A stretch of 5,506 bases of DNA from a virus (taxonomy: Monodnaviria > Loebvirae > Hofneiviricota > Faserviricetes > Tubulavirales > Inoviridae): positions 1-5,506 of the IMG/VR virus record IMGVR_UViG_2571042056_000001; one strand, given 5' to 3'. The notes under the pieces were generated by a model, which was not told where the DNA came from, did not search any database, and worked only from the letters and a program-made list of their open reading frames with translations. Numbering within the stretch: the stretch's first letter is position 1; the number at the start of each line of letters is the position of its first letter. The position numbers and the translations under genes are program-made. This document shows, in pieces, positions 2,082 to 5,094 of the stretch.

Positions 2082-3107
2082 ATGGCTGTATCATTGTATA
2101 TGGGTGTGATGGGGAGCGGTAAAACATACGAGGTTGTTTACAGTGTTATTATCCCTGCGGTTTCAGCAGGCCGCCGTGTAATCACCAATATCAAAGGGAT
2201 AAATGAAGAGAAAATACATGAGTATTGTCGTTCTAAATTCAAGACTAAGCAGCCTGGTCGTGTTGTTTTCGCATCGACGGATGAAATATTAAAGGATGAT
2301 TTCTTCCCTTTTTACTCTGATGATGAATCTTCAGAACAAAAAGCAGCATTTTGTGAATATGGTGATCTGATTTGTCTTGATGAATTATGGTCAATATGGC
2401 CATCGGACTCAAAACTATCTGAGGCACATAAAAGATTTATTTCAATGCACCGTCATATGACACATGCTGTTAGTGGGGTATCATGTGATTTGGTCATCAT
2501 CAATCAGGGTGTAGATGGTGTACCCCGGTATCTTAAAGAGCGTATTGAATCGACATACCGGATGACCAAGCTAAAATCTCTGGGGCTATCAAAGTCATAT
2601 CGTGTCGATGTTTTTTCTGGTGCCAAGGTATTCAAAAATAATAAAGTCAGTACTCGTAACTATCAGTACAAAAAAGCCGTTTTTGAATTATACAAATCTT
2701 ATGAAACCACTAACGGAATGGAAGCGACAACAGACTCTAGACAAAACGTTTTTTCATCCGCCTTTCTTTGGGTAAAAATTGCATTTTTATTATTTATTGT
2801 ACTGGCTTCTATATATTCAATAAGAACGGTCTGGGTGGATATTAGAGGTGAGTCAGTACCAGAGCCGAAACATACCGAACCGGAAGTTGTACTGCCTTCA
2901 TCAGCAAAGATTGCGAAACCTGATGCCCCGTACTCAAAGCGCTGGCGTATTGCCGGGGAGTTAAAATCAGATTATGTCAGCAAGGTTGTTCTTACAGACA
3001 GCAATGGTCGGTTTAGAACGCTACCGGCAAATCAGTTCGACGGAGAAGGTTTTACTTTAAGTGGAATCATTGATGGTGAAATTGTCACCTATTTTACTGG
3101 GGGTTAA
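2082..3107 (+). CDS. zot: Zot-family (zonula occludens toxin-like) assembly NTPase, inovirus pI homolog (341 aa)
   Basis: N-terminal Walker A P-loop MGVMGSGKTYEV. GRRVITNIKGIN and ISMHRH closely resemble the GRHIITNVRGLN and FDMHRH segments of CTXphi Zot as I recall them. A Walker B-like hydrophobic-Asp-Glu run (LICLDELW), a single TM segment after the NTPase domain (FLWVKIAFLLFIVLASIYSI) and a C-terminal periplasmic-type tail complete the pI/Zot architecture. RBS AGGA 7 nt before the ATG. Confidence 0.9.
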   Translation: MAVSLYMGVMGSGKTYEVVYSVIIPAVSAGRRVITNIKGINEEKIHEYCRSKFKTKQPGRVVFASTDEILKDDFFPFYSDDESSEQKAAFCEYGDLICLDELWSIWPSDSKLSEAHKRFISMHRHMTHAVSGVSCDLVIINQGVDGVPRYLKERIESTYRMTKLKSLGLSKSYRVDVFSGAKVFKNNKVSTRNYQYKKAVFELYKSYETTNGMEATTDSRQNVFSSAFLWVKIAFLLFIVLASIYSIRTVWVDIRGESVPEPKHTEPEVVLPSSAKIAKPDAPYSKRWRIAGELKSDYVSKVVLTDSNGRFRTLPANQFDGEGFTLSGIIDGEIVTYFTGG

Positions 3108-3108
3108 T

Positions 3109-4320
3109 ATGAAATTATTTTATATCATAATAGTGGTATTTATGATTCCACCTGCATTATCAAAAGGCGTTATACTGAATCTCTCAGGATTAACGCTTAA
3201 TGATGCCATTACTTTGTTTTATACTGAAGTTATGAGAAAACCGTTCATGGTTTCTCCTGAACTTATCACGGACAAACGACAAGTTAATTTCAATATTACG
3301 CCAGATATGGATGAGTATACGTTTATTATGCGTTATCTCCAGAATGCCGGAGTCTCTGTAGCCAGAAAAAATGGTGTGGATTACTTTTATCTCCAGGAGA
3401 AAAAAGTATACGAAGCCCCGAAATATTCTTTTGTTTACACACCACAGTACCGTTCTGTTGCTTATCTGGCTGATATTCTTCAGTCACAAGTGAGCGGGTC
3501 ATTTTCAAATGGTGGGCAAATAGGGAATGGCGATGTTTCTCCTGCGATGATTAAAGACAATACCGCATCCGATTTTTTGAGCAGAAATGGGGATGTACTT
3601 GTTTTTTACGGTACGAAAAAAGACATTCAGCGGGTCGAAGATTTGCTTCCTCTTATCGACCGGGCCGCCGAAGAAGTTATTGTCGCCGGGTACGTGTTTG
3701 AGGTTCAGACGTCTGAGCGAAATGGTTCTGGCCTGGCACTGGCTGCCAAACTTATGTCGGGAAAATTCACAATAGAAACGGGTACTGCACAAGGACTCAG
3801 CAACTTTGTCCGTTTCAGTTCTGGATCGCTCGATGCACTTTATGAGTTGTTCAGAACAGACAGCCGTTTTCACGTCGTCAGTTCGCCACAATTGCGGGTC
3901 AGAAATGGCTCTAAAGCATCATTTTCTGTGGGATCTGACGTGCCGGTACTCGGTCAGGTCAGCTATGTTGATGGTCGTCCGGTTCAGTCCATTGATTATC
4001 GTTCAAGTGGCGTAATTTTTAACGTTCAGCCGCAAATCCGGGCTGCTACGATTGACCTTAATATTCATCAGCAACTGTCTAATTTTGCAAAAACAGAGAC
4101 TGGGGTGAATAACAGCCCGACGCTCATTAAACGGGAGGTGAACACCGATGTTTCGCTCAAGGATGGCGACATAATTTTACTTGGTGGTCTGGCTGAGAAT
4201 AAAGACAGTAATGCAGATACGGGCCTGTCATTTTTGCCGTCATGGTTCGGAACAACGGCAACTGAAAAAGCAAAAACAGACATCATTATTGTACTTCAGG
4301 CCAGAAAAATCAGGCGGTGA
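3109..4320 (+). CDS. Secretin, inovirus pIV-like outer-membrane export channel (403 aa)
   Basis: Start chosen at ATG 3109 (GGGGG RBS at 3099-3103, 1 nt after the pI stop) rather than track start 3061. Signal peptide MKLFYIIIVVFMIPPALS. C-terminal secretin-type region with the conserved-looking DGDIILLGGLAENKDSNADTGLSFLP segment followed by a short basic tail. Confidence 0.8.
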   Translation: MKLFYIIIVVFMIPPALSKGVILNLSGLTLNDAITLFYTEVMRKPFMVSPELITDKRQVNFNITPDMDEYTFIMRYLQNAGVSVARKNGVDYFYLQEKKVYEAPKYSFVYTPQYRSVAYLADILQSQVSGSFSNGGQIGNGDVSPAMIKDNTASDFLSRNGDVLVFYGTKKDIQRVEDLLPLIDRAAEEVIVAGYVFEVQTSERNGSGLALAAKLMSGKFTIETGTAQGLSNFVRFSSGSLDALYELFRTDSRFHVVSSPQLRVRNGSKASFSVGSDVPVLGQVSYVDGRPVQSIDYRSSGVIFNVQPQIRAATIDLNIHQQLSNFAKTETGVNNSPTLIKREVNTDVSLKDGDIILLGGLAENKDSNADTGLSFLPSWFGTTATEKAKTDIIIVLQARKIRR

Positions 4321-4454: not shown

Positions 4455-4769
4455 ATGGCTACAAAGTTGAAGTTTATCCGACTGAAAATTGAAGATGAGT
4501 TAATCCAGCCGGTTAATAATCTGGCAGGCATTCGCGATGAGTTAAAGGCCGACATAGCCAGTGAAATCGTTGAGTGGTATCTGAACCAACGAAAAGCAGG
4601 GCATGTACACATACGGTACTTCTCCAGTCCGAAAGGCTCAGATTATCAGGGGATCTGGTTCCATCCGGATACGATCAAACGAGCGAAACAGCAGGCCGAA
4701 GACGATCAACAACCGTTAAACCGACTGATTTATACGGCTCTGGCCCGTTACTTTGAACAATCGATCTAA
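4455..4769 (+). CDS. Hypothetical protein (104 aa); possible regulatory or partner protein of the downstream HTH gene
   Basis: In-frame ATG at 4455 with GGGGA 4 nt upstream. The longer track ORF (GTG at 4317) would run through the GC hairpin and palindrome copy 1, so the shorter start is preferred; ATG 4419 inside the palindrome is another alternative. Mixed charged, non-hydrophobic product (MATKLKFIRLKIEDEL...RLIYTALARYFEQSI) with no motif I can assign. Confidence 0.5.
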   Translation: MATKLKFIRLKIEDELIQPVNNLAGIRDELKADIASEIVEWYLNQRKAGHVHIRYFSSPKGSDYQGIWFHPDTIKRAKQQAEDDQQPLNRLIYTALARYFEQSI

Positions 4770-4827: not shown

Positions 4828-5094
4828 ATGCAGCAATTTGATGTGTCTCATCCGGGCGAAATTATTGCCAGAGAGTTGGCTGAGATGGGCATTAGTGTTA
4901 ACCGATTTATCGAAGAAACTGGCATCCAGCCAGCTTTTTTAGAAGGGAAAATGGCGTTAACCGCTGAGCAGGCCGTTCCGATCGTAGCAATAATGGGAAG
5001 CACTCCTGATTTTTGGTTACGTCTTCAGTATGCATATGATCTGCGACAGCAGAAAAATAAAGCAGAAGCAGGCAAATATGACGATCACAGCTGA
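4828..5094 (+). CDS. higA: HigA/XRE-family helix-turn-helix DNA-binding protein (88 aa); antitoxin-like or phage repressor-like
   Basis: Product MQQFDVSHPGEIIARELAEMGISVNRFIEETGIQPAFLEGKMALTAEQAVPIVAIMGSTPDFWLRLQYAYDLRQ... carries the N-terminal HPGE motif, an HTH core and the GSTPxFWLxLQxxYDL signature typical of HigA/VapI-type proteins. RBS AGGA 9 nt upstream. The symbol is a family-level assignment, not proof of antitoxin function. Confidence 0.8.
   Translation: MQQFDVSHPGEIIARELAEMGISVNRFIEETGIQPAFLEGKMALTAEQAVPIVAIMGSTPDFWLRLQYAYDLRQQKNKAEAGKYDDHS

Follow-up and report, generated by a model that had tools for sequence, protein, structure and literature searches.

A zot-like gene of a rare Escherichia coli inovirus: an assembly NTPase of the Zot/pI family and its predicted C-terminal beta domain

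'Zot' annotations are routinely taken as evidence for an enterotoxin, and the main value of the present analysis lies in correcting that reading for one such gene. The gene runs on the plus strand from ATG to TAA (positions 2082-3107, 341 amino acids plus stop) within a window of 5,506 nucleotides, the whole stretch of inovirus DNA analysed here, and it is identical to a RefSeq coding sequence of E. coli EC4 (WP_025693551.1, 'zonular occludens toxin domain-containing protein'). Does its product drive the assembly of filamentous phage, does it act on the host, or does it do both?

The family assignment can be answered plainly. Pfam Zot (PF05707) covers residues 2-209 (E 1.7e-25, 90.1 bits at a cutoff of 20.3) and the PHROG profile phrog_197, 'Zot-like toxin', matches with E 1.2e-65, while a search of NCBIfam gave no matching model. 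CTXphi Zot belongs to the same two families, PF05707 and PHROG 197. BLASTP aligns it with residues 1-268 at 24% identity (E 2e-15), and the shared features include the P-loop, the segment GRRVITNIKGIN at residues 30-41 (CTXphi Zot equivalent GRHIITNVRGLN; cores GRRVITNIKG/GRHIITNVRG) and the position of the transmembrane (TM) helix. A first-pass annotation had proposed a Zot-family assembly NTPase with a P-loop, and had singled out that loop and GRRVITNIKGIN as aligning well with Zot; both statements are borne out. The assignment to the Zot/pI-family assembly NTPases is thus fully supported, and the gene is an ordinary addition to those already known.

Domain organization of the Zot-like protein

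The full-length AF2 model has a mean pLDDT of 88.7. Along the gene, the following features were placed, with their basis in brackets:

2082-2711, plus strand: cytoplasmic P-loop NTPase domain, residues 1-210 (Pfam residues 2-209, AF2, Foldseek)
2103-2126, plus strand: Walker A, GVMGSGKT, residues 8-15 (read from the sequence; consensus GxxxxGK[ST])
2367-2384, plus strand: Walker B, LICLDE, residues 96-101 (consensus hhhhDE)
2505-2507, plus strand: Gln142, equivalent to Q126, which M13 pI cannot do without (invariant in the alignment)
2760-2846, plus strand: single TM helix, residues 227-255 (hydropathy, AF2 helix)
2847-2930, plus strand: Pro/Glu-rich periplasmic linker, residues 256-283, predicted to be disordered (pLDDT, alignment)
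2931-3104, plus strand: conserved C-terminal periplasmic beta domain, residues 284-341 (alignment, AF2, profile search)

Residues 1-210 are modelled with pLDDT mostly above 90, and the best Foldseek match in the PDB is the N-terminal domain of a Neisseria Zot protein (2r2a, E 4.5e-9), with viral packaging ATPases and RecA-like ATPases ranking next; phmmer also recovers 2r2a (E 0.0017). In an alignment of 45 relatives, G13, K14, D100, E101 and Q142 are invariant. According to a study of M13 pI and CTXphi Zot (bioRxiv 10.1101/2022.09.21.508815), assembly of M13 needs the Walker motifs of pI, which in pI/Zot proteins take the consensus forms GxxxxGK[ST] and hhhhDE, as well as Q126, whereas CTXphi Zot has a Tyr in its P-loop, Phe residues in Walker B and a Pro replacing the Gln, and lacks ATPase activity when assayed in vitro. 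At each of these positions the protein studied here is canonical and differs from CTXphi Zot, whose P-loop reads GAPGSYKT and whose Walker B Phe residues are bulky; Q142 (within NQG) faces the Pro of CTXphi Zot (within TPN) in the BLASTP alignment. With both Walker motifs and Q142 in canonical form and a modelled fold that matches 2r2a, the protein looks like a working assembly motor rather than the degenerate form found in CTXphi, and residues 1-210 would be expected to have ATPase activity.

The predicted topology is that of an ATPase domain followed by a single TM helix and a periplasmic C-terminal domain. Hydropathy peaks over a core at residues ~223-247, and the AF2 helix spans 227-255. 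The first-pass annotation had placed the post-TM region from roughly residue 240 onwards; a C-terminal region after the TM helix is indeed present, but it begins at about residues 250-256. The linker that follows is unconserved and variable in length across the 45 relatives, and its pLDDT falls below 50 at residues 260-278. As a side observation, an in-frame ATG at codon 213 (2718-2720) sits 10-14 residues ahead of the TM helix, and a start there would yield a 129-residue product made of the TM helix and the periplasmic domain. Its placement resembles that of Met241, the start of pXI within M13 gene I. Unlike in Ff pI/pXI, however, a pXI-type internal start is not a conserved feature of this group: Met213 is not conserved in relatives, and no Shine-Dalgarno-like sequence precedes the codon.

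What, then, is the domain that this linker carries? Structure prediction, which had been suggested as a check, was run on residues 287-341 alone (55 residues, with 35 homologous fragments) and gave a five-stranded beta domain with pLDDT of about 96. The alignment defines a motif of the form SxxWRIxG...R...F...G...DGE.VT..SG, in which S285, W288, G292, R312, F319, G323, G328, D331, G332 and G340 are near-invariant among the 45 relatives. Run against 1.84 billion representatives, a profile built on the domain retrieves 286 clusters (E<=1e-3); in each of the 150 matches listed it lies at the C-terminus, and of the 57 that are full-length proteins, 54 have an N-terminal Walker A. Among the matches listed, only Zot-family proteins carry the domain, at their C-terminal end. 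Neither Pfam nor PHROG has a family for it, and comparison with solved structures and with predicted viral ones gave no match. We regard it as possible, if somewhat doubtful, that the domain represents an undescribed class of pI periplasmic module specialised for docking one clade of phage secretins; with still lower probability, it could serve a second, host-directed activity unrelated to the FCIGRL motif of CTXphi Zot. A 1070-residue protein (P0431) with a signal-peptide-like N-terminus gives seven partial matches to the domain profile (positions 12-40, E 7.5e-11), which could mean that it consists of repeats of a similar beta hairpin, or else an artefact of composition.

Gene neighbourhood, relatives and the comparison with Ff pI

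The window comprises the morphogenesis half of an Inoviridae prophage, with these genes:

171-392: major-coat-like gene
515-1780: g3-like gene, 421 amino acids
1790-2077, plus strand: g6-like minor coat gene, DUF2523 (PF10734 E 1.5e-13, phrog_974)
2082-3107, plus strand: gene I/zot-like coding sequence, inovirus assembly ATPase (open reading frame, RefSeq identity, PF05707, phrog_197)
3109-4320, plus strand: pIV-type secretin gene, whose product is presumed to be the partner in the outer membrane (phrog_1012, 'protein IV of M13', E 1.3e-123; Pfam Secretin E 8e-25)

Running from coat through g3-like, g6-like and zot to secretin, the genes are arranged like the Ff morphogenesis module, and as in Ff the zot-like gene lies downstream of g3/g6-like genes and directly upstream of a pIV-type secretin gene. 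The RefSeq start of the secretin, ATG 3109, lies 1 nt past the zot stop. In the list of open reading frames the secretin instead starts at GTG 3061, with a 47-nt overlap with zot, and the ATG at 3109 is followed at once by the signal-peptide-like MKLFYIIIVVFMIPPALS. A GGGGG stretch near the end of zot could be the secretin ribosome-binding site, which would fit translational coupling of the two genes. The g3-like protein matches phrog_7187 (E 1.5e-46) and phrog_3942 over its C-terminal ~120-200 residues; it has no Pfam match, and its N-terminal part, which gave no match of any kind, is presumably receptor-binding. Small regulator-like genes lie downstream of the secretin gene: a HigA-family antitoxin-like HTH gene at 4828-5094 (phrog_1381, E 2.9e-11), with no recognisable HigB toxin alongside, and upstream of it a 105-residue open reading frame at 4455-4769 with a weak Arc/RHH-like C-terminus (E 0.002). 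Rfam, promoter and terminator scans of the window gave nothing above chance.

The architecture is likewise that of Ff pI, which also combines a Walker A/B ATPase bearing an essential Gln with a single TM helix and a small C-terminal domain in the periplasm. At the level of sequence the two proteins differ considerably: BLASTP aligns residues 1-37 only, and the protein described here matches neither phrog_1675 nor phrog_25505, the families of M13 pI and of its C-terminal part. Comparison of the C-terminal domain with the Ff pI C-terminus by hhalign gave a marginal P 0.02-0.025 over 25-31 columns, confined to the first hairpin (reversed control 0.35). Over the N3 and secretin (barrel) domains, the secretin and M13 pIV share 26% identity. 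With the M13 counterparts as partners, BLASTP aligns neither the N0 region of the secretin nor the C-terminal domain of the Zot-like protein, both being too diverged, and this parallel divergence would fit a pair of co-evolving partner surfaces.

Proteins in phage records reach only 36-41% identity, the closest coming from uncultivated human and lemur inoviruses. Full-length homology at 36-69% identity extends to Inovirus D_HF5_61, Dulem virus 52 and prophages of Pectobacterium, Klebsiella, Yersinia and Pasteurellaceae. These gut and oral inovirus and prophage relatives share the C-terminal beta domain and the order DUF2523-Zot-Secretin; the likeness is one of sequence alone, and the nearest phage-database record is 41% identical. 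The gene order was found in every relative neighbourhood that was read, namely those of a Klebsiella prophage (42%), two metagenomic or other-host lineages (39% and 36%) and Inovirus D_HF5_61 (41%). Prophages of the plant-pathogenic Pectobacterium, of Pasteurellaceae and of Klebsiella all keep the C-terminal domain.

The C-terminal region and CTXphi Zot

How much of the toxin of CTXphi might be retained in such a protein? The activity of Zot has been mapped to FCIGRL (residues 288-293), an agonist motif for PAR-2, and G298 is also important (PMC7541967). FCIGRL is absent from the 341-residue protein and was found in CTX Zot by the same motif search; neither the receptor-binding octapeptide GRLCVQDG, which includes G298, nor its relaxed form G.L.VQ.G is present. 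The tails differ in extent as well, with 154 residues after the TM helix, including FCIGRL, in CTXphi Zot and about 100 residues lacking the motif here. BLASTP against CTXphi Zot aligned nothing past residue 268, which bears out the first-pass annotation in seeing no obvious likeness between the C-terminal part and the active fragment of V. cholerae Zot. Residues 237-399 of CTX Zot match phrog_30486 (E 4.5e-113), the family of the CTX Zot C-terminus, which the protein here does not match. Profile comparison by hhalign of its C-terminal region with the CTX subfamily gave P 0.58-0.72.

Comparison with a broad Vibrio/Aeromonas set did give a weak similarity (P 0.0007-0.0015); for this and the similarity to Ff pI, reversed-sequence controls gave P 0.04-0.5. 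It covers, as does the similarity to Ff pI, the first beta hairpin only and in the same register, which corresponds to CTX Zot residues ~315-340, downstream of FCIGRL. These weak similarities are at most a hint of a shared pI periplasmic fold and constitute no evidence for a toxin motif. A resemblance by eye between WRIAGEL and FCIGRL, in which a loose regular expression pairs WRIAG (residue 288 here) with FCIGR (residue 288 of Zot), was considered and rejected as coincidence: comparison with the CTX subfamily gave this pairing P 0.58 over 9 columns, and with the broader Vibrio/Aeromonas set WRIAGEL aligned to CTX Zot ~315-340 and not to FCIGRL. Within the Zot proteins themselves, the FCIGRL region is partly kept only in the two closest CTX relatives (FCVRGICFQ and FCNGRVCFE), and Aeromonas Zot proteins have a C-terminus different from that of CTX Zot.

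By profile-profile comparison, the Ff pI C-terminal domain itself aligns on CTX Zot ~314-380 (P 2.7e-4, probability 41%; reversed control 0.34), so that a pI-like periplasmic domain may persist in CTX Zot, C-terminal to FCIGRL. PDB sequence searches with M13 pI and CTX Zot returned no solved structure.

The suggestion of an enterotoxin-like C-terminal region is therefore not upheld, as neither FCIGRL nor GRLCVQDG nor any similarity to the CTX Zot C-terminus was found. The first-pass annotation had named two observations that would speak against it, the lack of a counterpart of the Zot active fragment and a grouping with non-toxigenic pI proteins; the former is what we see, whereas a close grouping with Ff pI is not, given that BLASTP joins the protein to Ff pI over its first 37 residues only, and in essence the outcome is the one described there. 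Nothing in the sequence speaks for a toxin, and judged by these motif and profile comparisons tight-junction activity would not be expected.

A model for secretin docking and its alternatives

It is very probable, in our view, that an integrative E. coli filamentous phage has in this gene its pI-type morphogenesis ATPase, and that the periplasmic domain of this ATPase would dock the phage's own secretin. We envision that the N-terminal 210 residues, with catalytic motifs intact, would act as a cytoplasmic P-loop ATPase that is anchored in the inner membrane by the one TM helix, and that the flexible linker of ~28 residues would extend the five-stranded beta domain (284-341) into the periplasm. 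There, as the analogy of Ff pI/pXI with pIV suggests, this domain would contact the N-terminal (N0) region of the secretin from the adjoining gene, and the resulting trans-envelope channel would extrude ssDNA clad in coat protein, powered by ATP hydrolysis. The docking model is proposed because the order DUF2523-Zot-Secretin is constant, because the secretin ATG follows zot after 1 nt, and because N0 and the C-terminal domain are equally diverged. Less favourable to it are the marginal similarity of the C-terminal domain to the Ff pI C-terminus, the lack of a conserved pXI-like internal start and the truncated secretin gene in one of the two EC4 copies. We infer the contact between the C-terminal domain and the secretin; the prophage is probably productive.

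Alternatively, the protein might be an assembly ATPase whose C-terminal domain binds a different partner, such as the emerging virion cap, peptidoglycan or a host protein. The strict adjacency of the secretin gene in all loci examined makes this unlikely, as does Ff genetics, which puts the pI/pXI periplasmic domain against the N0 region of pIV; the joint divergence of the C-terminal domain and N0 from their M13 counterparts, if it does reflect co-evolving surfaces, would point the same way. Far less probable, and in our judgement hardly to be expected, is a dual function as in CTXphi Zot, whereby a cleaved and released C-terminal fragment would act on tight junctions of the host epithelium through a sequence unrelated to FCIGRL. 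Such a fragment is conceivable inasmuch as the protein shares the Zot-like architecture of an ATPase, a TM helix and an exposed C-terminal domain, most carrier strains were isolated from humans, in one case from urine, and Zot homologues without FCIGRL have been reported to have barrier or cytoskeletal effects by a mechanism that is not known (PMC7541967). Against it stand the lack of both Zot peptides and of the CTX Zot C-terminus, the narrow distribution of the FCIGRL region among CTX relatives, and ATPase motifs that are not degenerate, unlike those of CTX Zot. Moreover, the C-terminal domain is kept in Pectobacterium and Pasteurellaceae prophages and always adjoins a secretin gene in the neighbourhoods read, which points to an assembly constraint. 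The CTXphi record, for its part, has ctxAB after zot and no secretin gene there, whereas the phage described here encodes its own secretin.

A further alternative is a prophage in decay and no longer productive, in which the gene would survive as an inactive remnant with no present function. The window is 100% identical to the EC4 chromosome (L003 12001-17506), where genes for Rep and an ssDNA-binding protein lie upstream of it, and the element forms a tandem array between hipBA and ydeT (L003 8659-25023). A perfect 28-bp dif site follows the second copy (L003 24996-25023), and a tandem array ending at dif is usual for integrative inoviruses; neither the left end nor the junction of the copies showed another dif-like site (<=3 mismatches). 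Decay is suggested by the second, dif-proximal copy, which is cut off inside the secretin gene to leave a 95-residue product, by the rarity of the element (8 of 5426 complete E. coli genomes), and by the lack of any DNA-level relative in a megablast search of the phage genome collection. Nevertheless, the first copy has a complete replication and morphogenesis module, both copies encode the same Zot-like protein accession, the open reading frame is intact with at least 99.7% DNA identity across the eight carrier genomes, and all catalytic and family-invariant residues are retained. Tandem arrays are, in addition, typical of active dif-integrating inoviruses, as is established for CTXphi, whose prophage also integrates at dif in such arrays. 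We thus hold a remnant to be improbable, and the element is apparently an undescribed, rare, dif-integrated E. coli inovirus with its own secretin; in being integrative at dif, it differs from the episomal Ff phages.

Since the sequence is that of a standard inovirus assembly motor and contains nothing equivalent to the toxic peptide, E. coli strains that carry this prophage should not be scored as positive for a tight-junction toxin on this basis. The compact C-terminal domain, with its confident model, could also serve for the study of pI-secretin coupling, for which PDB searches found no experimental structure. Lastly, a DUF2971 gene and a gene for an MltR-family regulator lie on the opposite strand between the two EC4 copies (L003 17661-18993), a short way past the right end of the window, and may be cargo of the element.
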